Source of the DNA: Bdellovibrionota bacterium
Lineage (GTDB): Bacteria > Bdellovibrionota_C > UBA2361 > CALJRW01
DNA: 64,000 nucleotides
NCBI GenBank assembly: GCA_041740355.1
Contig: JBGSMD010000046.1
Location: 19,950-83,949, forward strand
Reading direction: 5' to 3'
Part shown: one piece after another, positions 7,213-35,314 of the stretch
Position numbering within the stretch: the stretch's first letter is position 1
Layout of the letters: each line of letters opens with the position of its first letter
Position numbers and translations under genes: made by a program
The notes under the pieces: generated by a model
What the model was told of the DNA's origin: nothing
Seen by the model: the letters and a program-made list of their open reading frames with translations, nothing else
Database searches by the model: none

Positions 7213-8202
7213 ATGAGTAATATTGAAGAAAGATTAAGCGAGTTTAGAGAAACCTTTGGGCAAGTTGAGTCAGAGATTAGCAAGGTAATTGTTGGGCAGA
7301 AGGAAATCATTAGGGGAACCTTAGGTGCCATCTTTAGTGGAGGGCACGTACTTTTAGAGGGGGTTCCTGGTTTAGGAAAAACTTTACTGGTCAATTCAAT
7401 TGCCAAGTCCCTTGGATTAAATTTCAAACGAATTCAATTTACCCCAGATTTGATGCCGAGTGACATCACTGGAACCGAGATTTTAAATGAGGGCGATGAT
7501 GGTAAAAAACAATTTATTTTTATGCCGGGCCCCCTCTTTGCAAATATTGTCCTAGCTGATGAAATTAACCGAGCAACTGCGAAAACTCAAGCGGCCCTGC
7601 TGGAAGCCATGGAAGAAAAGCAAATTACAGTAATGGGTAAGACCCATCCTTTGCAAACTCCTTTTTTTGTTCTTGCCACTCAAAATCCCGTAGAGTTAGA
7701 AGGAACTTATCCTCTGCCAGAAGCTCAGCTAGATCGTTTTATGATTAAGCTAGTTCTTAAATTACCAAGTGAACCGGAAATGCAGGAAATCTTAACTCGA
7801 ACTACTGGGGCGAATATTCCACAAGCAACGGCAGTGCTAGAAGGTTTTAATCCAGCTGAGAAAATTAATGAACTGAAATCTCTAGTACGGGAAGTTGTTG
7901 TACCAAGACCATTACAAGAAGTTTTAGTCAGAATGTTATCGGCACTAAATCCTGATTCTAATTTTGCAACTGAAAAAGTTAAGAAATACGTGCGCTTTGG
8001 TTCTGGCCCGCGGGGAGCACAAGCGACAGTCTTGTTTTCTAAAGTGATGGCCTTACTTGCTGGACGAATGAACATTGACTTTGTTGATTTACAAACAGCA
8101 TTAGTTCCTTGCTTGCGACACAGATTGATTCTTAATTTCCAAGCAGAAGCAGAAGGTATTACAGCTGAAGAAATTATTTCAGAAATTGTTAAAGCTAAGT
8201 GA
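7213..8202 (+). CDS. MoxR-family AAA+ ATPase
   Basis: It has a Walker A (GVPGLGKT) and the typical MoxR architecture, with VLLEGVPGLGKTLLVNSIAKSLGLNFKRIQFTPDLMPSDITGTEI. Confidence 0.9.
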   Translation: MSNIEERLSEFRETFGQVESEISKVIVGQKEIIRGTLGAIFSGGHVLLEGVPGLGKTLLVNSIAKSLGLNFKRIQFTPDLMPSDITGTEILNEGDDGKKQFIFMPGPLFANIVLADEINRATAKTQAALLEAMEEKQITVMGKTHPLQTPFFVLATQNPVELEGTYPLPEAQLDRFMIKLVLKLPSEPEMQEILTRTTGANIPQATAVLEGFNPAEKINELKSLVREVVVPRPLQEVLVRMLSALNPDSNFATEKVKKYVRFGSGPRGAQATVLFSKVMALLAGRMNIDFVDLQTALVPCLRHRLILNFQAEAEGITAEEIISEIVKAK

Positions 8203-8335: not shown

Positions 8336-9205
8336 ATGCCTTTGCCAGTAACTTTTACACCACAACTTTTAAGACAATTAGAGTTGCAACAATTAAAAGC
8401 GCGCAAATCATTTTTAGGATCTCGGCAGGGTGCTCACTATTCGCCTAAGCGTGGTCATGGAATTGAATTCTCTGACTTTAGGCAGTATCAGCCAGGGGAC
8501 GATCTTCGTCATATAGATTGGAATTTAGTAGCAAGATCTGAACGTTTTTATATTAAACGCTTTAGAGAAGAGCAAGATCTTTTAGTGCATTTAATTCTTG
8601 ATAATTCTGCTTCGATGTTTAGTCCGTCGACTGATAAATGGAATAGGGTTGTGGAGTTAGCCTTAGCGATTGGGTATCTTTCCAGTATGCAACAAGATCG
8701 CTTACAACTTGCTGTGCCGGGACATTTCATTGGTAAAAAATATTCTGGAAAAAACTTAGTATATAAACTCTCTGATGATTTGGCTCAAGTTCAAATCAAC
8801 TCTGCTAAAACTTTTGATGCTGATTTAAAACTTAGTTTTACGACAACAAATTTCCCAGGTGTCGCCTACTACATTTCTGATTTTTTAGATGACCCCGAAA
8901 AAATTAAAGCGAATTTTCAAACATTACTAGCTCGCAATCTTGATTTGCGAGTCATTCAAGTTCTTACTCCAGAGGAGATCACCCCACGCCTTGGAACGAA
9001 GGTCTTAGCAGTTGATAGCGAAACAGGGCAAGAAGTTCCACTCGAAGTAACAGCCAGTAATGCACCTGAATACCAACAAGCTTTTGCTAAGCATCAAAAA
9101 GATTGGCAGGACTTTTCTTATCAACGACAAATCGCTTGGTATAGTTGTGATACTAGCCAAGACTTAGCTGAGATTTGTCGCAAGATATTAGGGGTTGGAA
9201 AATGA
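8336..9205 (+). CDS. DUF58 domain protein (MoxR-partner, VWA-like)
   Basis: It contains DDLRHIDWNLVARSERFYIKRFREEQDLLVHLILDNSASM, the typical DUF58 core. It lies immediately downstream of MoxR. Confidence 0.85.
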   Translation: MPLPVTFTPQLLRQLELQQLKARKSFLGSRQGAHYSPKRGHGIEFSDFRQYQPGDDLRHIDWNLVARSERFYIKRFREEQDLLVHLILDNSASMFSPSTDKWNRVVELALAIGYLSSMQQDRLQLAVPGHFIGKKYSGKNLVYKLSDDLAQVQINSAKTFDADLKLSFTTTNFPGVAYYISDFLDDPEKIKANFQTLLARNLDLRVIQVLTPEEITPRLGTKVLAVDSETGQEVPLEVTASNAPEYQQAFAKHQKDWQDFSYQRQIAWYSCDTSQDLAEICRKILGVGK

Positions 9206-11004
9206 GCCTCGGTTTTAGCGCACCAGCTTTTTTGTTATTAGCCATTCCGGTAATTGGAGGGCTAATCTATGCTTACTTAAATCGTGGGCAAGCTAAGCGG
9301 CAGATAGTTTCTAGCACGATCATATTTAAACAACTTAAGAATCGTCCTAGTGTTCGCCAGCGTATTCAGCTTCCTTGGAGGTTTTTTTATGAACTGCTGG
9401 CGCTGTTAATCTTAGTTTTATCAATTGCCGGATTTTATTGGCAATCGCCAGGCAAATACTGGCAAGTGATTATTGATAATTCACTCAGTCTTTCTGCTAT
9501 CGCCGATGCCAGTAGTTCTAAAAATATTTTAGCTTTAAATATTGCTCAATTAAAAAATGACTATCAGTCTAGGATTCGCAATTTTTCAGGAATTAAAGTC
9601 TGTGTAACGGCGCCAAGTTTTGAGTGCTGGTCAGATGGCTTTCAGACTTGGGATGAGGTGATTTCTAAGATTGAAGATTTAAAAATTCTACCAGCAAACG
9701 ATCTTTTGGAAAGTATTTTAAGTTCACTTACAACTTCACCCGATGTTGAATTGACAGTTTATAGCGATTATTTAAGCAACAGTAAGCAATCAAACAAACT
9801 AAAGCTATCTACGGTACGAAGCGGAGGACTCGGAAATATTGCAATCACTGAAATTTTGCTTAGGCCAAATCAGACAGTTAGTGTTGGCATCCAATCTTTC
9901 GTCAGTACCCCAGTTCAAAAGAAAGTTAAACTTTACTTGCTATCGGAAATTCAAGGGAAATTAGTCTTAACAGAGAGCAAAGAAAATAGTTTTAAACTTA
10001 ATCCAGATCAAAAGATTTTTGTTGATTTTAAAATTGCCAATGATGTCCGCGCGGTTATTGCCGAAATTGACTCTGAAAATCGCAGTCCAACAGTAGACGC
10101 TATTGGTAAAGATAATATTGCTTTTCAAGTGATCAATCCGCAAGTTCAAGCTGAGGTATTATTGGTTAGCGAGCGTTCAATTAGTGAAAGTGGTTTAGCC
10201 GTGGTTTTTGATGATAAGGTAAAATTACTATCGCCGACTGAATATCAGCAAGGAGCGACCAGTTCCAAGAAATATTCACTAATAATTTTTGATAATTATA
10301 TTCCTAAGGAATTCCCAAATTCCAATCATTTGATTATTGCCAGCAATTCAGAGCCTGGAATAATACAAACAGAATTGCAAAGATCTCCCCAGATTACTAC
10401 TTGGGATAAGGAAAGTGCCTTGTTGCGATATTTAACTCCCGATAATTTCCAATTTAAAAATGTTTGGTCAGCTAAACTTCCCAGTTGGTTCCATCCGGTT
10501 ATTTCCAGCAATAATCAAATAATCTTGGCCACTGGATTTTTAGGTCAAGTTAAATCTGTTTACCTGGGATTTCCGATTTTGCCTTTGGAACAAAGTAATA
10601 ATCAAGCAATATCGATTTTAAGCTTAAATACACTTAAGTGGTTAGAAGAAACCAGCGAAGCTCCAATTTCATTTGATCGGGAGACACTGGTTTATACATT
10701 AGTAGATCAAAAATTAGTTTCAGAAATACATTCTAATCAAGCTTCTAGTTTAATCGGAATTTTTTCATCCTCGGATGGAAAGGTAAAATCATATAACGCT
10801 AAGAATTTCTACTCAGAGGAAGAGTCCAATCTGAAAGTTGTTCGGAAGATCTCGATTCCAACATTGCTTATTTCCAAAGAGTCACAATTAGCAAACAGTT
10901 CCAATCCAAATTTGAACCAGTTAATCTGGTTTGTGTTAGTAATGATGTTGGCTGCTTTATACTCACCGCTTTTCATTTTTGATAAAAAAGGAAAAGAAAG
11001 GTGA
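9202..11004 (+). CDS. BatA-N (aerotolerance regulator N-terminal) domain membrane protein
   Basis: The N-terminus MSLGFSAPAFLLLAIPVIGGLIYAYLNRGQAKRQ...LPWRFFYELLALLILVLSIAGF matches the BatA_N pattern. The ATG at 9202 removes the overlap implied by the track's start at 9175. It has a C-terminal TM segment. Confidence 0.75.
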   Translation: MSLGFSAPAFLLLAIPVIGGLIYAYLNRGQAKRQIVSSTIIFKQLKNRPSVRQRIQLPWRFFYELLALLILVLSIAGFYWQSPGKYWQVIIDNSLSLSAIADASSSKNILALNIAQLKNDYQSRIRNFSGIKVCVTAPSFECWSDGFQTWDEVISKIEDLKILPANDLLESILSSLTTSPDVELTVYSDYLSNSKQSNKLKLSTVRSGGLGNIAITEILLRPNQTVSVGIQSFVSTPVQKKVKLYLLSEIQGKLVLTESKENSFKLNPDQKIFVDFKIANDVRAVIAEIDSENRSPTVDAIGKDNIAFQVINPQVQAEVLLVSERSISESGLAVVFDDKVKLLSPTEYQQGATSSKKYSLIIFDNYIPKEFPNSNHLIIASNSEPGIIQTELQRSPQITTWDKESALLRYLTPDNFQFKNVWSAKLPSWFHPVISSNNQIILATGFLGQVKSVYLGFPILPLEQSNNQAISILSLNTLKWLEETSEAPISFDRETLVYTLVDQKLVSEIHSNQASSLIGIFSSSDGKVKSYNAKNFYSEEESNLKVVRKISIPTLLISKESQLANSSNPNLNQLIWFVLVMMLAALYSPLFIFDKKGKER

Positions 11005-11165
11005 GCGAGCAAAATCCTGTTGCAGGCAGGTTATGCCTTAGAAAACACTACAAAACCCTACGCCAATTAGCGGTGAGTATTTGTTTTGTCTTCTGCGGCG
11101 CAACTTGGCTAAAGCCAAGATTACGCGCGCCCTCCGCAAATTTCATCTGCGAAGGGTTTGTTTGG
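10957..11165 (+). ncRNA. Copy 1 of a roughly 205-nt structured element ending in an intrinsic-terminator-like hairpin. Candidate cis-regulatory RNA or sRNA
   Basis: The second copy at 34424-34621 is about 85% identical. Three stems show compensatory changes between the copies. The element ends in ccctccgcaaatttcatctgcgaaggg + ttt. The ORF 11001..11189 overlapping it is not conserved in copy 2. Confidence 0.55.
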
Positions 11166-11185
11166 CGAAGGAGTAGTGTAATAAT

Positions 11186-13684
11186 ATGAGTCTTACCTTT
11201 AATAATTCTTCGTTACTTTTTTTAGTAATCCCATTGCTTGTGATATTTTTCTTGTTCAAGCAAGAAAAAAGCTTGCGAGTTAAAGTGCTGGAAACTTTAG
11301 CGCTAATGAGTTTAATTTTAGCACTTGCTCACCCAGTCTCTCGAACAATGATCAAAGCCGAGGGCGTGATTGTAGCAGTAGATCAATCGGCCAGTATTAC
11401 GCCGCAACTTGCTAGCGATTTTAATAAGCGTTTAGCAGAATTATCTTTACCAAAAGAAACTAAATTTGTTTCCTTTGCGGGAGGCTTGGGTTCCTTAGAA
11501 GCTAGCCTTAAAGAGGCTAATCAAACAAAACTAGATCGCACCAAGGCTAGTAATTTTGAAAATCTGATTAATTACTTTCCTCAGACTCCTCTTGTTTTAC
11601 TATCTGACGGACAAGAGAATTCCGGAAATGCAATTACGGCCTTACAGCTTCGCGGACGAGAAGCACCAATTTATCCAATTGTTCTGGAAGGGGAGGAGAT
11701 TGTCTCTGGATTTCAGATTGAGAAATTAGCGGTTCCGCTAATGTCTGATGCTGGGATTCGCCAAGACTTAACAGTCTTGTTTAAGAATTTCACAGCTGAA
11801 GAAGTTTCCGGAAAGATTCTGATTAAACAAGAGGAACAAGTTTTAAAAGAGGAAGATCGTGAATTGGCGGCGCAGGAGATTCTTAACTATTCGTTTTCAA
11901 CAAAAGAACTAAAACCAGGATTAAATAAATTTACTGTTGAATTTAAAGACGCCTCTGTTCCGACAAATTCGTTAGTATTTTATATTACGGGTAAAGAAAA
12001 GAATCAGGTTCTGATCCTGACCGACAGTGCTGCTGAGTCTAAGCTACTAGAGACCGCTTTATTAAATCAGAAATATAAAGTTGAATTACAAGACTCTTCT
12101 CAGAAGCATGTTGTCGTCGAGGACTTGGCTAAATATCAAATTATTTTCTTCAACAATATTCCCTTTAGATCTTTGCCCGATCCGCTAGTTGACTCATTAA
12201 AGGGCTACCTAAAACAAGGGGGCTCACTAATGATGTTAGGTGGGAATAAAAGCTTTGGACTTGGTGGCTATAAAGACACAGTAGTTGAGGAAATTTTACC
12301 AGTTAATGTTTTAAAGCCTGAAAAAATCCAACAACGAGTAAACGTTGCGGTAGCTCTAGTGCTCGATAAATCAGGTAGCATGAGAGCTAGCCAAAGAATG
12401 GATTACACCAAGTTGGCTTCGCGCTCAGTAATTGAGGCATTAAAAGATGATGATTATTTCGGACTAATTGGTTTTGATAATCAGCCATTTATTGCACTCA
12501 ATATGCAACAAATGAATGCTTCCAATAGAGAGAAAGCTGCTAAGCGTGTAGAGCTATTATTCCCTAATGGCGGAACAAGTCTTTATCCAGCAATGGATGT
12601 TGCTCGGCAAGAATTAGAATTGGCTAAGGCAGGAAGAAAACACATGATTATTCTAACCGATGGTCGCTTGCCGGATGAAGCACAGTTGGGGTCTAGTTAT
12701 CTGAATATGGCCCGAGAACTTAAGGCTACAAATATTTCTGTTTCTACTTTCTTAATTGGGAGTGATGATTCCACCTTATTAAAAGAGATTGCAACTTTTG
12801 GTGGGGGGAAATTTCACCAAACAATGGATGCACAAAGTCTGCCACGTTTATTTTTAGATGATGTGAAGATGAATACTGCTGAAAAAACGCAAAAAGAATT
12901 CTCGGAGTACCCTGTTAAAAAGTTTCCTGGATCCAGTAGTCGCTTAACTAAACTAACTGAGTTTCCAAGTCTTCTGGGATATGTAGAAACTAAAATTAAG
13001 AAGGGTGCAGAATTAGAATTAGTTACAACCGCTGTTAATGATGATCCAATTTTAGCTGGCTGGACCCACGAAGGTGGTCGCGTGGTCGCCTTCACTGGAG
13101 ATCTCTCTGGTCGTTGGTCAAAAAATTGGATTGTTTGGAAATCGATTTATGAGTTCTTAGAACAGGTTTTAAATTATTTGACTCCAAGCAAAGATGGACA
13201 TTTATTTTCAGATTTTGAATTTGATTATTTGATTAAAGGGCAGAGGCTACAACTTAACTTAACTACCTATCAAAGTTCTTTTCAGGTGGGAGATTTTCCA
13301 CTGAATATTACTTGGGCTGATGATTCTACGGAAGAACAAAGTTTTATGACTATAAGTAAAGGGTATTATCAGGCAGACATTGATGCTCCTGTAGCTGGAC
13401 TTGCTAAGGTTAAACTCGGAACCCCTGATGGCCGGGATCACCAATTTATTATTGACATTCCAAATCCTGACGAGGTTGAACGACCGATGGGTGTAAACCA
13501 AGCCTTCCTTAACTCATTAGCAAGTTTAAGTGGTGGTGAAATTAATCCAAAAGAAATTAAAGCCACTTCTGCCGCCCAGTCCAAGCAGACGGAGCAGTCT
13601 TGGCAGGTATCATTTTTACTAATGTCTTTAATTTTATTTCTGCTCGCGATCTGCGCACGAGAAGGTGTTTTCTCAAGGCGCTAG
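11186..13684 (+). CDS. BatA/BatB-like membrane protein with a BatA-N domain and a von Willebrand factor A domain
   Basis: The N-terminal TM/BatA_N region is MSLTFNNSSLLFLVIPLLVIFFLFKQEKSLR. The VWA core is VALVLDKSGSMRA...LFPNGGTSLYPAMDVARQ...HMIILTDG. It has a C-terminal TM segment. Confidence 0.85.
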   Translation: MSLTFNNSSLLFLVIPLLVIFFLFKQEKSLRVKVLETLALMSLILALAHPVSRTMIKAEGVIVAVDQSASITPQLASDFNKRLAELSLPKETKFVSFAGGLGSLEASLKEANQTKLDRTKASNFENLINYFPQTPLVLLSDGQENSGNAITALQLRGREAPIYPIVLEGEEIVSGFQIEKLAVPLMSDAGIRQDLTVLFKNFTAEEVSGKILIKQEEQVLKEEDRELAAQEILNYSFSTKELKPGLNKFTVEFKDASVPTNSLVFYITGKEKNQVLILTDSAAESKLLETALLNQKYKVELQDSSQKHVVVEDLAKYQIIFFNNIPFRSLPDPLVDSLKGYLKQGGSLMMLGGNKSFGLGGYKDTVVEEILPVNVLKPEKIQQRVNVAVALVLDKSGSMRASQRMDYTKLASRSVIEALKDDDYFGLIGFDNQPFIALNMQQMNASNREKAAKRVELLFPNGGTSLYPAMDVARQELELAKAGRKHMIILTDGRLPDEAQLGSSYLNMARELKATNISVSTFLIGSDDSTLLKEIATFGGGKFHQTMDAQSLPRLFLDDVKMNTAEKTQKEFSEYPVKKFPGSSSRLTKLTEFPSLLGYVETKIKKGAELELVTTAVNDDPILAGWTHEGGRVVAFTGDLSGRWSKNWIVWKSIYEFLEQVLNYLTPSKDGHLFSDFEFDYLIKGQRLQLNLTTYQSSFQVGDFPLNITWADDSTEEQSFMTISKGYYQADIDAPVAGLAKVKLGTPDGRDHQFIIDIPNPDEVERPMGVNQAFLNSLASLSGGEINPKEIKATSAAQSKQTEQSWQVSFLLMSLILFLLAICAREGVFSRR

Positions 13685-29107: not shown

Positions 29108-29212
29108 AAAGCTACTCTCACTTTGGGCGAAGCGCGAGGTAGCTTGCGAAACTGGTCAGATTCGGAAGGAAGCAGCCATAAGCGAATCCTACTTGTGTTG
29201 CTTCGCCCTCTT
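29108..29212 (+). ncRNA. ffs: Signal recognition particle RNA (4.5S/SRP RNA)
   Basis: The domain IV consensus cuggucagauucGGAAGGAAGCAGCCauaag is present. The closing helix gggcgaagc...gcttcgccc is present. The position immediately upstream of dnaX is the conserved ffs-dnaX-ybaB-recR arrangement. The ends are approximate. Confidence 0.75.
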
Positions 29213-29228
29213 TCGCCAAGGCTTCAGC

Positions 29229-29250
29229 GGGTAAACCCGTTTTCTCCCCT
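29229..29250 (+). terminator. Terminator hairpin after the SRP RNA
   Basis: cgggtaaacccg followed by ttttctcccctttt. Confidence 0.5.
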
Positions 29251-29292
29251 TTTAACTTATTTTTAACAGGCATTCATGCCCGTTAAAAATAA
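29246..29292. other. Roughly 20-bp-arm AT-rich palindrome between the SRP RNA and dnaX
   Basis: ttaacttatttttaacaggcat tc atgcccgttaaaaataagttat. Confidence 0.4.
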
Positions 29293-29369
29293 GTTATCAC
29301 GCCATAGCACGCAGTGCGAAGGCGGATTGCATATAGTGTATAGATCTTTTCTTTTGTATAATCTTCCAC

Positions 29370-31025
29370 ATGTCCTATCTGGTAATTGCTCGTAAGTATC
29401 GCCCAGAAACATTCTCTGAAGTTAGTGGCCAAATTCATGTTACCAGAACACTTGGCAATGCCATTAGCCGCAATAAAGTTGCGCATGCCTATCTTTTTTG
29501 TGGACCAAGAGGAGTTGGAAAAACTTCTATCGCTCGAATTTTTGCTAAATCCTTAAACTGTGAACAAGGACCAACTTCCACACCATGTCTAAAATGTAGT
29601 AATTGTTTAGAGATTAAAGCAGGCAAGAGTTTAGCAGTTAGAGAAATCGACGGAGCCTCTCATAACAGCGTTGATGATGTTCGCGATTTAATTGATAACT
29701 TTCGTACTCTCCCTCCCCCCAATTCTAAAAATAAAATTTACATCATCGACGAAGTACACATGCTAAGTACTGCCGCATTTAATGCTTTACTCAAAAGCTT
29801 AGAAGAGCCACCACCAAACACAATTTTTATTTTAGCAACTACTGAGGCGCATAAGATTCTACCTACAGTACTTTCACGTTGTCAGCGTTTTGACTTAAGA
29901 GCTCTACCAATTGATGAAGTACAGTCTTGCTTACAAGCTATTTGCCGTGAAGAGAAAGTAAAAATTTCCGGCGAATCTCTGCGGATGATTGCTCGACTTT
30001 CAGATGGCTCGCTGCGTGATGCACAATCGCTGTTGGAAAGAGTTCTAGCTTTTTCCAGTGAAGACGTGTCCTTAGATGATACTGCTTTAGCTCTTGGGAC
30101 AGTAGGCAAAAATCAACTCTTGCTTCTTTCTCAAGCAATCTTTAATCGTGATGTTGAAGCAGCGCTTGAAAAATTATCAGAAGTTTTTGCTACAGGCTTA
30201 GACTCTAGCTTATTTCTTAAGGAGTTTGTTACTCACTGGCACGAACTTTTAATTGCAAAATTTGCAGGCAAAAAAGAACTGATGGCTTTGGGGATAGAAG
30301 AAGATTGCCAAAGCGAATTACTAAGACAGGTAGAACCAGTAGCCAAAAGCGATCTACAAGATTTGGTTGATTTAGCTAGAAGGGGCGCGGACCAAGCACT
30401 ACGAAGTTCTTACTTGAAATTTTCCTTAGAAAGCTTAATCGTTCGTTTAGCAACACGCATACCAGTATTAGATTTTGCTGAAGTTCTAAACAACCTGAGC
30501 GGCGGTGAGGCTCAAAAAAAAAAGCCTCTAGTATTAGCAGAAGTTAAGACTACTCCAATTTCGAAAACACCGATCCGAGTTGCTACTCCAATAAAGCCAA
30601 CTGCGCCCATTACATCTGCAGCAGTTGCTAGTAAGTCTGGTACTGAATTTGTTTGGAGAGATTTTCTTGACTATGTGAATAAGATTGCTCAGCCCGTAAT
30701 GATGGAGAGCTTAAAAAGAATTTCCGTAGATCGTTTTGTATACCCGCAGCTTCAAGCAAGTGCTAATGACCTCAGCTTAAAGTATTTTAACATTCCCACC
30801 AATTTAGCTCGGCTTAAAGTAATCCTTAAGGATTTTACTAAGCTTGATGAATGGCAAATTAAACTTAGCTTAGCTGAACAAGCAAACTACATTCCAGGAA
30901 GTGTTCATCATCAAGAAGCCAAAAGTCGCTTTAAGGATAAGCAAAATAGAATCGCGGAAATTCTTGAAGATCCCAATGTTAAAGCAATGAAGGAATTATT
31001 TCCGGGTAGCGAAATTGATCGTTAG
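29370..31025 (+). CDS. dnaX: DNA polymerase III subunit gamma/tau
   Basis: Walker A CGPRGVGKTSIARIFAKSLNC, a Zn-binding Cys cluster, and DEVHMLS. Confidence 0.95.
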   Translation: MSYLVIARKYRPETFSEVSGQIHVTRTLGNAISRNKVAHAYLFCGPRGVGKTSIARIFAKSLNCEQGPTSTPCLKCSNCLEIKAGKSLAVREIDGASHNSVDDVRDLIDNFRTLPPPNSKNKIYIIDEVHMLSTAAFNALLKSLEEPPPNTIFILATTEAHKILPTVLSRCQRFDLRALPIDEVQSCLQAICREEKVKISGESLRMIARLSDGSLRDAQSLLERVLAFSSEDVSLDDTALALGTVGKNQLLLLSQAIFNRDVEAALEKLSEVFATGLDSSLFLKEFVTHWHELLIAKFAGKKELMALGIEEDCQSELLRQVEPVAKSDLQDLVDLARRGADQALRSSYLKFSLESLIVRLATRIPVLDFAEVLNNLSGGEAQKKKPLVLAEVKTTPISKTPIRVATPIKPTAPITSAAVASKSGTEFVWRDFLDYVNKIAQPVMMESLKRISVDRFVYPQLQASANDLSLKYFNIPTNLARLKVILKDFTKLDEWQIKLSLAEQANYIPGSVHHQEAKSRFKDKQNRIAEILEDPNVKAMKELFPGSEIDR

Positions 31026-31160
31026 AATCGCTTCTTTTTTTCAATAAATTTACCCCTATCTGCACTAGCCAAATCGATCCTTCGGTGCTAAATTTGCATA
31101 CTGTAGTATGACAATTTTTCTTATGTCATATTTAAAAATTAATTTTTTTTGGTATTAGTT

Positions 31161-31508
31161 ATGAACAAAGGACGAGGCGGATTTCCAGGCGGTGGTGGTG
31201 GCGGAGTTGGTGATTTAATTAACCAAGCTAAGCAAATGCAAGCCAAATTAGAAAGTGCCCATGGTGAAGCACAACAATATTCGGAAGAAGGACAATCTGG
31301 TGGTGGAATGGTTAAGGTTGTAGCTAAAGGTGATAACAAGATTGTTAGCATTACAATTAATCCAGAAGTACTAGATCCTAATGACGTGGAAATGTTACAA
31401 GATATGATCTTGGCTGCAACAAACGATGCTTTAACAAAAGTTCAAGCAAAAGTTCAAAGTGTATTAACAAACATTACTGGCGGAATGAGTATCCCAGGAT
31501 TATTCTAA
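31161..31508 (+). CDS. ybaB: Nucleoid-associated protein YbaB/EbfC
   Basis: MNKGRGGFPGGGGG...LINQAKQMQAKLE...VVAKGDNKIVSITINPEVLDP...MLQDMILAA. Confidence 0.9.
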   Translation: MNKGRGGFPGGGGGGVGDLINQAKQMQAKLESAHGEAQQYSEEGQSGGGMVKVVAKGDNKIVSITINPEVLDPNDVEMLQDMILAATNDALTKVQAKVQSVLTNITGGMSIPGLF

Positions 31509-31699
31509 ATCCGATAGTGCTTAACGACTTAAATTGGGATAGTAAGTTTAATCTTCTATCAGGATTCGCAATCTGTCAGACCTTTGGTCTGGCTGAAAGT
31601 TTTTAAGGTTAAGCACTATATGTTATTGGCCTCGCCTTCGCTCGGCATAGAGTGCCTAAAGAAAGATTTTAATTTATATCGTTTGTTGCGATAGGCACT

Positions 31700-32296
31700 A
31701 TGCAGTATCTCCCTAAGTCATTACAACGTTTAATTTCTGAATTGAACAAACTACCAAGCGTCGGCGGAAAATCCGCCGCTCGCTTGGCTTATCACCTAAT
31801 TAATCATCCCCAAAACGCCGATGCTTTAGCTGCTGCCATGCGCGATGCCGCTGGGTCACTGCAACAATGTAAGCAATGTTATTTTATTACGGATGATCAG
31901 CTTTGCCTGATTTGCAAAAGCACTAATCGCGATCATTCCCTAGTATGTATTGTGGAAAAACCAGCTGATTTAATTGCTATTGAGCAAGCTGGTGTTTTTC
32001 GCGGATTTTATCACGTCCTCCATCAACTTTGGTCTCCGATACGCGGACAAGGATTAGATTCCATGCACCTTGCCGAACTAATTGAACGCAGTAAAAAAGA
32101 AGAAGTTACAGAAGTAATTATTGCCACAGGAGCAACTGTCGAAGGAGAAGCAACAGCTCTTTATCTTGCTAGATTATTAAATGATAGCGGCATCAGAGCA
32201 ACGCGATTAGCTCAAGGCCTACCGAAGGGTGGAGATTTAGAATATCTTGATGATGTCACTCTTTCTCGTGCGCTTTCTGGGCGTACAATAATATAG
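31700..32296 (+). CDS. recR: Recombination protein RecR
   Basis: The HhH N-terminus (LISELNKLPSVGGKSAARLAYHLI), the C4 zinc finger CKQCYFITDDQLCLIC and a Toprim domain are present. Confidence 0.95.
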   Translation: MQYLPKSLQRLISELNKLPSVGGKSAARLAYHLINHPQNADALAAAMRDAAGSLQQCKQCYFITDDQLCLICKSTNRDHSLVCIVEKPADLIAIEQAGVFRGFYHVLHQLWSPIRGQGLDSMHLAELIERSKKEEVTEVIIATGATVEGEATALYLARLLNDSGIRATRLAQGLPKGGDLEYLDDVTLSRALSGRTII

Positions 32297-32379
32297 CCTC
32301 TACATAATTTTATTGTAGGAAATTTAATTTAAGTCACTTAAATTACAAATAAATCTATCTATATTGTGCCTGCACTCTC

Positions 32380-32407
32380 TTGACTTTAATTTATTTTAAG
32401 GTAAATT
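32380..32407 (+). promoter_or_regulatory. Candidate sigma70-type promoter for tRNA-Asn
   Basis: TTGACT - 16 nt - TAAATT, about 17 nt upstream of the mature tRNA 5' end. Confidence 0.4.
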
Positions 32408-32423
32408 TTCAGTCCACAACTAT

Positions 32424-32496
32424 TCCCCGGTAGCTCAGTTGGTAGAGCAGTTGACTGTTAATCAATTGGTCGTAGGTTCGAGTCCTTCCCGGGGAG
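32424..32496 (+). tRNA. tRNA-Asn (anticodon GTT)
   Basis: Acceptor stem TCCCCGG/CCGGGGA, discriminator G. D-arm GCTCAGTTGGTAGAGC. Anticodon stem-loop GTTGA-CTGTTAA-TCAAT. T-loop GGTTCGAGTCC. No encoded CCA. Confidence 0.85.
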
Positions 32497-34048: not shown

Positions 34049-34423
34049 CTGACGATTTTTAGATTATGACTCTAAGATTTTAAGGGTTTATGGTATTCCA
34101 ACCCTATTTTCTGGAGAGAAACATTAAGACATGCTTAAAACCCTTGATTGTTCATAAGGATAGCAATTTTGCAAAAATAACATTTAATAGATTGAGTAAG
34201 TTAAAATTTGCAAAATTGCTGGCCTCGTAAAAAAAGAGGTTTTAAGCAGGTCTCACATTAAATGATGCAAGTCATGGATACTCCAATTGTCTCCCAGTTA
34301 GTACCTAGTCGCATTTAGTTTAATTGGAGTTAGATAACTTAAATCAATTAAATTCCAGATAATACAGGGTTTAAATCTAAGATCTCTAGATAGCAACTCT
34401 AAGTAAAAACCTGAATTTTATAC

Positions 34424-34621
34424 TCACCGTTTTTCATTTTTGATAAAAAATGAAAAGAAAGGTGAGCGAGCAAAATCATGTCGCAGACAGGTTTTGCCGT
34501 AGAAAACACCGCTAAACCCTACGCAAATCAGCGGTGAGTATTGGTTTCGTCTTCTACGGCGTAACTTAGCTAACGCTAAGATTACGCTCGCCCTCCACAA
34601 ATTTCATTTGCGGAGGGTTTA
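34424..34621 (+). ncRNA. Copy 2 of the roughly 205-nt structured, terminator-ending element
   Basis: It is about 85% identical to 10957-11165, including a relic of the upstream gene's last codons (LYSPFFIFDKK*). It ends in ccctccacaaatttcatttgcggaggg + ttt, which abuts the stop of the convergent VIT gene. Confidence 0.55.
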
Positions 34622-35314
34622 TAATGTGGTTCCAATCAATCTTCCCACTCCAGCAGTGACCCCCATAGCAAGAGCTCCCCAAAACATAACTCGAAATGCC
34701 CCTCTTATCAGAGATGCCCCGCCAGCATATGAGGCTAACAAGCCTAGAATCAGCAGAGTAAAGAGAGTTGAGATCGTTGTAACAAAACTTACTGAATGAG
34801 CTGAAGCAGTTAGTGCTGCTAGAATTGGCACTACCCCTCCAATAGCAAAAGCAACCGCTGAAGCAAATGCGGCTTGAATTGGGCGGGCTCTGAGCTCCTC
34901 AGTTATACCCAGTTCGTCTCTTGTATGCGCAACTAGTGCGTCTACCGCTGTTAACTGTTGCGCAACTTGCAAGGCAAGAGCGCTATCAAGTCCGCGTTTT
35001 ACATAAATTTCAGTTAGCTCTTCAAGTTCCTTCTGAGGGTCTTCTGCTAATTCTTGTTTTTCTCTATTTAAATCTGCATTTTCCGTGTCTGCCTGGGATT
35101 GTACAGAAATATATTCTCCAGCCGCCATCGATAATGCCCCAGCCACGAGTCCTGCGATTCCGGTCAGAAGAATGTCACTTTGTAAGGCGCCAGCCGCGGC
35201 AACACCTACAACAAGACTAGAGATAGAGACTACACCATCATTAGCACCTAAAACAGACGCTCTAAGCCATCCAATTCTATGTGCCCGGTGGTATTCAATG
35301 TGTTGTGAACGCAT
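34619..35314 (-). CDS. VIT1/CCC1-family (MbfA-like) iron/manganese transporter
   Basis: WLRASVLGANDGVVSISSLVVGVAAAG...GALSMAAGEYISVQSQ...ELTEIYVKRGL carries the family signatures. It is GC-richer than the surrounding genes. Confidence 0.85.
   Translation of the reverse strand: MRSQHIEYHRAHRIGWLRASVLGANDGVVSISSLVVGVAAAGALQSDILLTGIAGLVAGALSMAAGEYISVQSQADTENADLNREKQELAEDPQKELEELTEIYVKRGLDSALALQVAQQLTAVDALVAHTRDELGITEELRARPIQAAFASAVAFAIGGVVPILAALTASAHSVSFVTTISTLFTLLILGLLASYAGGASLIRGAFRVMFWGALAMGVTAGVGRLIGTTL

Follow-up and report, generated by a model that had tools for sequence, protein, structure and literature searches.

A small non-coding and very probably mobile element in two uncultivated bacteria

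Introduction

Two closely similar, strongly foldable sequences of about 200 nucleotides (nt) are found in a 64,000-nt stretch of a Bdellovibrionota bacterium (GenBank assembly GCA_041740355.1, contig JBGSMD010000046.1, positions 19,950 to 83,949 of the forward strand). This whole stretch is called the window here. One sequence (copy 1) lies inside a MoxR-DUF58-BatA-VWA operon, and the other (copy 2) lies beside a gene of the VIT family. The question raised by this locus is whether such a repeat is an RNA kept by the host for its structure, or a piece of DNA that moves. An earlier note on the window named both options: an attenuator or terminator module or a small RNA from 3' untranslated regions (UTRs) on one side, and a mobile element resembling repetitive extragenic palindromes (REPs) or miniature transposable elements with inverted repeats (MITEs) on the other.

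The repeat is very probably a non-coding, non-autonomous mobile DNA of ~197 nt, that is, an insertion element and not an RNA gene of the host. The family is previously uncatalogued, and its closest kind is small non-autonomous mobile elements resembling palindrome-associated transposable elements (PATEs). As a whole, the data are best explained by a precisely inserting, duplication-free, PATE-like mobile element, a reading to which a probability of roughly 50% can be given.

Results

Four copies with sharp ends

The two copies in the window, at 10956–11159 and 34417–34620, both on the + strand and 23 kb apart, align without gaps over 204 nt at 88.7% identity (blastn and alignment). The earlier estimate had been about 85%. 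A 26-mer common to both occurs twice in the window, with 0 occurrences expected by chance. Their flanks are unrelated, and the similarity drops abruptly at both ends. Searches with blastn, nhmmer and a covariance model detected no third copy, full, partial or diverged, in the 64-kb window. The parts of the two copies are as follows.

10955..10959, + strand: 5' target flank of copy 1, CTTTA (TTTAT after a 1-nt slide), based on the four-copy alignment
10960..11156, + strand: inserted segment of copy 1, 197 nt, TACTCACCGC...GCGAAGGG, based on colinearity with empty sites and on blastn, nhmmer and the covariance model
10962..11005, + strand: 5' hairpin of copy 1, CTCACC/GGTGAG plus a 12-bp inner stem (consensus fold columns 6–49)
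11006..11129, + strand: central multibranch domain of copy 1, closed by CGAGC/GCTCG, with three hairpins; an imperfect long palindrome (consensus columns 50–173)
11130..11156, + strand: 3' hairpin of copy 1, CCCTCCGCA...TGCGAAGGG, its stem weakened by a C.A mismatch (consensus columns 174–200)
11157..11189, + strand: what is left of the original BatA-N 3' end (F V W R R S S V I I stop), aligned codon for codon with the C-termini of two relatives (L080 and L082, below)
34421..34617, + strand: copy 2, 197-nt element, based on blastn, the consensus fold and the covariance model
34423..34466, + strand: 5' hairpin of copy 2
34467..34590, + strand: central domain of copy 2
34591..34617, + strand: 3' hairpin of copy 2
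34619..34621, − strand: stop codon TAA of the VIT-family gene (from the list of open reading frames, ORFs), within the TTTAT 3' flank of copy 2

The earlier note had suggested searching for further copies and for covariation among them. A 21-mer scan of a collection of representative genomes found two more full-length copies, both in a single, distantly related metagenome-assembled genome (MAG), GCA_031385045.1 (JANNBC01, "bacterium isolate OTE_78_metabat_376"), and none elsewhere in the collection; covariation in the resulting four-copy alignment is at chance level, as described below.

7638–7841, − strand: copy L001 in the MAG, on a contig of its own
2556–2759, + strand: copy L002 in the MAG, on a contig other than that of L001

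The flanks of L001 and L002 show no DNA-level similarity to the window, and their neighbour genes have no orthologs in it. In the four-way alignment the similarity begins abruptly at TTATAC and ends at GGAGGGTTT. These facts, four copies with abrupt ends and unrelated flanks, indicate a dispersed repeat with sharp ends and not a segmental duplication.

Other searches yielded nothing further. A 19-mer scan of metagenome contigs gave 7 matches, all at chance level and 20–37 nt long. Three scans of viral contigs gave no matches or chance matches only, and blastn against plasmids and phages gave no match. Searches of L001, L002 and the other fetched loci with nhmmer and the covariance model revealed no further or diverged copies. 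In the sequencing run SRR28170465, the Logan contigs of two loci (L093 and L010) are 100% identical to the window and end inside the two copies, at 10986 and 34518. The organism of the window is thus present in that run, and the repeat breaks the short-read assembly there. Such contig ends are expected of a repeat, and the two window copies alone could suffice to cause them.

An empty site at the junction of the BatA-N and VWA genes

The earlier note had placed copy 1 simply between the BatA-N gene and the VWA gene. The neighbours are correct, but the element does not lie outside the first gene. The BatA-N ORF (9175–11004; Pfam BatA N-terminal domain) runs 45 nt into copy 1 and takes its stop codon there, TGA at 11002–11004, inside the 5' hairpin.

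The closest homologs of the BatA-N protein are P0003 (66% amino acid identity, locus L080) and P0002 (70%, locus L082). L080 comes from MAG GCA_031385045.1, in which L001 and L002 also lie, and L082 from the Logan run SRR29492082. At both loci the element is absent, and the BatA-N gene ends with F I W R R/K x x x x x stop and overlaps the VWA start by ATGA. The C-termini are FIWRRSKINQ in L082 and FIWRKGKAKA in L080, each followed by the stop. In the window the order is GCT GCT TTA, then TACTCACCGC...GCGAAGGG, then TTT GTT TGG CGA AGG AGT AGT GTA ATA ATA TGA. In-silico removal of 10960–11156 (197 nt) yields the tail FVWRRSSVII plus stop, in frame and colinear with both relatives. The spacing from LIW to WR is then 12 residues in the window as in L080 and L082, and the ATGA overlap is the same in all three. 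Because the reconstructed junction matches the empty sites in two relatives, copy 1 is a precise insertion at TTA^TTT, 11 codons before the gene end.

The displaced end of the BatA-N gene is intact downstream of the element, with the AAGGAG ribosome-binding site, the ATGA stop/start overlap and the VWA gene start at 11186. The "62-aa ORF" at 11001–11189 consists of this relic and a chance open stretch through copy 1.

The boundaries of copy 1 can be slid by 1 nt (ACTC...GGGT). Junction sharing is at most 1 nt, and the empty-site reconstruction, at this one site, shows no target-site duplication. Assuming a duplication of 5 bp (TTTAT), 3 bp (TTT) or 2 bp (TA) puts the reconstructed BatA-N gene out of frame in each case. 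With a TTTAT duplication, the reconstructed gene would be 4 nt short relative to both orthologs.

Target sequence and gene context

The four copies are flanked by the following sequences.

Copy 1: 5' CTTTA, 3' TTTGT
Copy 2: 5' TTTTA, 3' TTTAT
L001: 5' AATTA, 3' TTTAT
L002: 5' TATTA, 3' TTTAA

The target common to all four is AT-rich, WTTA^TTTR or, with the 1-nt slide, WTTAT^TTR. The pentamer 5' of the element is TTTAT for copies 1 and 2 and ATTAT for L001 and L002. Directly before TAC or TAA, each of the four copies has (T/A)TTA.

The gene contexts differ. Copy 2 lies 1 nt past the stop codon of a convergent VIT-family gene (34619–35314, − strand; Pfam VIT1, E = 1.4e-66), which is not disrupted; its upstream neighbour is divergent, and no co-directional gene lies upstream. 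L002 lies between two co-directional genes, one of which encodes an M50 peptidase, and L001 is 163 nt upstream of an SNF2 helicase gene. At all four loci the G-rich strand carries the same strand of the element, the one with the 3' hairpin followed by T residues. The GC skew of the window is positive throughout (+0.01 to +0.09).

The surroundings of copy 2 deserve a separate description. A housekeeping cluster occupies 29122–32496, with the signal recognition particle RNA (29122–29214), dnaX (29370–31025), ybaB (31149–31508), recR (31700–32296) and a tRNA gene (32424–32496). Directly after the tRNA gene, the segment 32915–37090 encodes on the minus strand two proteins without a Pfam match, one of 377 aa with a lipobox-like N-terminus and one of 196 aa. 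It continues with the VIT-family gene and a protein with an ORF6N (KilA-N-like) domain, and copy 2 lies within it. This segment is possibly a small island beside the tRNA gene.

Fold, palindrome and coding capacity

Three copies share one architecture: a 5' hairpin, a multibranch domain (CGAGC/GCTCG with three hairpins) and a GC-rich 3' hairpin. Both end hairpins are present in each of the four single-copy folds. The RNA folding energies are −65.6 kcal/mol for copy 1 (z = −3.5), −80.2 for copy 2 (z = −9.5), −83.9 for L001 (z = −9.8) and −86.5 for L002 (z = −10.3). Folds of copy 2 as single-stranded DNA are similarly exceptional for either strand, and the minus strand of the element, as RNA, folds at least as well as the plus strand. 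The profile of the element is also matched by the reverse strand of each copy (nhmmer E ~1e-10; covariance model 71–87 bits). This self-match indicates that the central ~145 nt form one large, imperfect palindrome whose arms each contain a small hairpin.

Copy 1 carries the most substitutions (14 relative to the consensus) and has the weakest 3' hairpin, −11.6 kcal/mol, against −16.0 in copy 2 and −18.5 in both L001 and L002. This weakness could reflect relief of polarity or plain decay.

The structural parts named in the earlier note are all present: the 5' hairpin, a long-range complementarity of 12 nt, and the GC-rich 3' hairpin followed by TTT. The complementarity is perfect in the window copies and lies between the 5' terminus, ATACTCACCGCT (10959–10970 and 34420–34431), and an internal segment, AGCGGTGAGTAT (11069–11080 and 34530–34541). 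It is used by no minimum-energy fold, and the 5' end pairs locally with GGTGAG. In L001 and L002, 10 of the 12 positions form Watson-Crick pairs, without special conservation. The mini-hairpin tGcggcgCa of the earlier note falls outside the consensus fold.

The 3' end was also described as a terminator. It has a GC-rich stem of 9 bp, a loop of 9 nt and 3 contiguous T, with 4–6 T in the next 8 nt. The consensus terminator scan (GC-rich stem, loop of 3–8 nt, at least 5 T among the 8 nt that follow the stem) flagged neither window copy, and the T-run belongs mostly to the host target DNA, not to the element. No promoter-like site was found at the window copies.

Terminal inverted repeats were not detected; the similarity of the first 55 nt to the reverse complement of the last 55 nt is about that of shuffles (p ~0.41). 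This absence, together with that of a target duplication, removes a MITE with terminal inverted repeats from the candidates. A coding peptide was also considered and rejected: in six-frame translations of the four copies no frame is open in all on either strand, and the frames are broken in 2 of the 4. In accordance with the earlier note, in copy 2 the ORF called over copy 1 is interrupted. An exact look-up of seven element ORFs found none ever called as a protein.

The search against Rfam that had been proposed was performed with Rfam 15 and gave no match in the window at gathering thresholds. At E up to 10 the best hit is wcaG, with 14 bits against a threshold of 42. A riboswitch, a ribozyme or another known RNA family was set aside on this basis.

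Substitution pattern and age

The earlier note had pointed to compensatory base changes between the copies. Paired substitutions do exist (alignment columns 96/126 and 151/160), but they are not in excess: the two pairing-preserving double changes compare with 1.0 +/- 0.8 in shuffles and are reached in 123 of 500 shuffles. Variable columns amount to 25/142 in stems and 13/56 in loops (p = 0.42), and private substitutions break 10 pairs versus 11.7 +/- 1.5 expected in a leave-one-out test (p = 0.22), all of these tests being of low power with four sequences. The fold is a property of the consensus, or master, sequence, and nothing indicates that folding is maintained in individual copies. The copies appear to decay neutrally, and copy 1 has lost much of its fold.

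Pairwise identity among the four copies is 87–92%, within genomes as between them, and nearly every substitution occurs in one copy only, which gives a star-like pattern. Between the two genomes, orthologous host coding DNA is ~75% identical, and the proteins ~66%. Since the copies within a genome are no closer than those between genomes and the differences are private, all copies descend from one recent master sequence. This implies recent activity in both lineages. Horizontal transfer is probably involved.

Discussion

Proposed mobility as a single DNA strand

PATEs are transposase-free derivatives of IS200/IS605 elements, known from Haloquadratum (PMC3119063) and Geobacillus stearothermophilus (bioRxiv 10.1101/2023.03.14.532601). 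They are defined by a non-coding size, a hairpin at each end, a conserved 5' pentanucleotide, and the lack of both target duplication and terminal inverted repeats (PMC3119063). TTTAT is the experimentally established target of the IS200/IS605 element ISGst2, whose genome also holds PATEs (bioRxiv 10.1101/2023.03.14.532601). The element described here has the defining traits of PATEs together with TTTAT as in ISGst2. On this basis, movement as a single DNA strand by an HUH/Y1 transposase acting in trans is taken as the most likely mechanism, although this part of the interpretation stays tentative.

It can be envisaged that an IS200/IS605-type HUH/Y1 transposase, supplied from elsewhere, would recognise the hairpins at both ends of the + strand. 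The strand would then move by "peel-and-paste" and integrate just 3' of the WTTAT motif, and the integrated copies would decay neutrally. The location of one and the same element strand on the G-rich strand is as expected for integration into the lagging-strand template.

Several observations weigh against this mechanism or soften its support. No transposase or autonomous relative is seen among the 47 ORFs of the window by Pfam. In IS200/IS605-type elements the hairpins are set back from the ends, more so on the 5' side, and those of the two ends are often alike. Here the left and right end hairpins are dissimilar, their direct similarity being at chance (p ~0.37). They lie 2–5 nt (5') and 0–1 nt (3') from the boundaries, and hairpins so flush with the ends leave no room for guide and cleavage tetranucleotides in the style of IS608. 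The first 2–3 nt of the 3' flank (TTR) are conserved in all four copies as well, which recognition of the target on the 5' side alone does not explain. An IS200/IS605-type model assigns no role to the internal segment AGCGGTGAGTAT and its complementarity to the 5' terminus. The strand bias, four of four, is weak (p ~0.06–0.12) and confounded with gene orientation. The lack of target duplication is based on a single empty site. Changes on one side of a pair that are compatible with G-U pairing number 13 on the + strand versus 6 on the − strand, a difference that is not significant, and with four copies some selection on structure may still exist.

Alternative explanations

Part of the same evidence could be accommodated by a mobile element that uses other machinery: a recombination-like process at a TTTAT-like motif, as proposed for the bcr elements, or an enzyme of the IS110/IS1111 type, of the IS91/Helitron-like type or of another kind. 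This is a less probable alternative than the single-strand mechanism, and on balance unlikely. The conservation of both sides of the insertion point (WTTA^TTTR in 4/4 copies) agrees better with a recombination site than with a target recognised on one side, and neither a target duplication nor terminal inverted repeats are present. Insertion between A and T and a GC-rich 3' hairpin are reminiscent of rolling-circle elements. On the other hand, IS91 targets GTTC/CTTG and Helitrons have the termini TC...CTRR, and the element matches neither. The bcr elements are likewise structured, 100–400 bp long and associated with TTTAT (PMC6542083, PMC6199540). A 5-bp TTTAT duplication or core is nevertheless rejected at copy 1, where both the reading frame and the 12-residue spacing would break, and no recombinase was found among the window ORFs scanned.

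The view that the element is an RNA selected by the host, an attenuator or terminator module or a 3' UTR small RNA kept for its fold, draws on the very stable folds (z ~−10 in three copies), the 3' hairpin with its T-run, the co-directionality of three of the four copies with neighbour genes, the two double substitutions that preserve pairing, and the higher number of G-U-compatible changes on the + strand. It is improbable all the same. The orthologous operon lacks the element in two relatives, and the four gene contexts (bat operon, VIT, SNF2 helicase, M50 peptidase) are unrelated. The gene downstream of copy 2 runs towards it, and upstream of copy 2 there is no co-directional gene. Neither a promoter-like site nor a terminator by the scan criteria was seen at the window copies, no Rfam family matches up to E 10, covariation and the substitution rates of stems and loops are at chance, and the reverse strand folds equally well or better. 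A conserved structured RNA is thus not supported, and the mobile option of the earlier note is supported by the empty site in two relatives, the four sharp-ended copies in unrelated contexts and the star-like divergence.

A different role for RNA is comparably improbable. The element might be a mobile RNA gene whose transcript, an orphan guide similar to omega-RNA or bridge RNA, would aid its own movement or targeting through a nuclease or recombinase encoded elsewhere. The complementarity of AGCGGTGAGTAT to its own 5' terminus, the two-sided target and the hairpins flush with the ends fit this reading. In a bolder variant, a terminator-ended transcript could be turned back into DNA at sites rich in T, which the lack of target duplication argues against. 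As an outcome that would refute its proposal, the earlier note had named a recent segmental duplication of neutral DNA. The location of two copies 23 kb apart on the same strand agrees with such an event within one genome, but its probability is negligible. The flanks diverge abruptly at both ends, a second genome holds two more copies at unrelated loci, identity is no higher within a genome than between genomes, and copy 1 interrupts a coding sequence exactly at TTA^TTT.

Effects on the host and significance

Under the reading as a PATE-like insertion, the last 10 codons and the stop of the BatA-N gene would have been replaced by 14 codons encoded by the element, giving a new basic tail, YSPLFIFDKKGKER. 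The protein appears to keep its hydrophobic C-terminal segment. The translational coupling to the VWA gene through the stop/start overlap was probably lost, with the AAGGAG site retained, and a stable terminator-like hairpin followed by host T residues would now stand inside the MoxR-DUF58-BatA-VWA operon.

For annotation, the insertion accounts for the spurious 62-aa ORF, marks the BatA-N C-terminus as element-derived and the operon junction as disrupted, and explains the breaks of the organism's short-read contigs at both copies. The family is common to two uncultivated low-GC bacteria at ~90% identity, versus ~75% for orthologous genes, and so probably marks recent horizontal spread. If a partner enzyme is found, the flush hairpins, the two-sided TTA^TTT target and the self-complementary segment could define a variant of single-strand or guide-dependent transposition. 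As it stands, the element belongs to an ordinary class of selfish DNA.

Comparison with known systems

The 3' end of the element resembles an intrinsic terminator in having a GC-rich stem of 9 bp and, after it, a T-rich tract on the + strand. It differs in the 9-nt loop, the 3 contiguous T and the origin of the T residues, largely target DNA, and also in being the terminus of a 197-nt mobile unit and not a terminator that stands alone. With classical MITEs it shares a small size, the lack of coding capacity, dispersal, foldability, a frequent location between genes or at gene ends, and a capacity to supply terminators or modify the ends of genes. The defining feature of classical bacterial MITEs (Correia, ERIC, RUP and others) is the presence of terminal inverted repeats, usually with a target duplication (e.g., TA). 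Both were tested here and are absent.

The bcr1–bcr3 elements of the Bacillus cereus group are mobile repeats associated with TTTAT, for which a recombination-like process has been proposed and the enzyme is not known (PMC6542083, PMC6199540). Common features are a length of 100–400 bp, multiple copies, a predicted stable structure, mobile behaviour and TTTAT at the insertion site. Published accounts of the bcr elements, compared here by description and not by sequence, confine them to the B. cereus group and allow for a duplication of TTTAT; such a 5-bp duplication is excluded here at the one reconstructed site.

The closest likeness is to PATEs. Relative to them, the hairpin at either end lies flush with its boundary and shows no sequence relationship to the other, conservation extends to the 3' flank, a large branched palindrome makes up the central 124 nt, and no Rfam match was obtained, including any that would mark the element as an IS605-associated RNA. 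Shared with PATEs are the protein-less length, the absence of terminal inverted repeats and of target duplication, a palindrome near each end, and a conserved motif of 4–5 nt 5' of the left end (WTTAT here, TTTAT for ISGst2). As in PATEs, the family is homogeneous, with copies >87% identical, and the orientation follows the G-rich strand.

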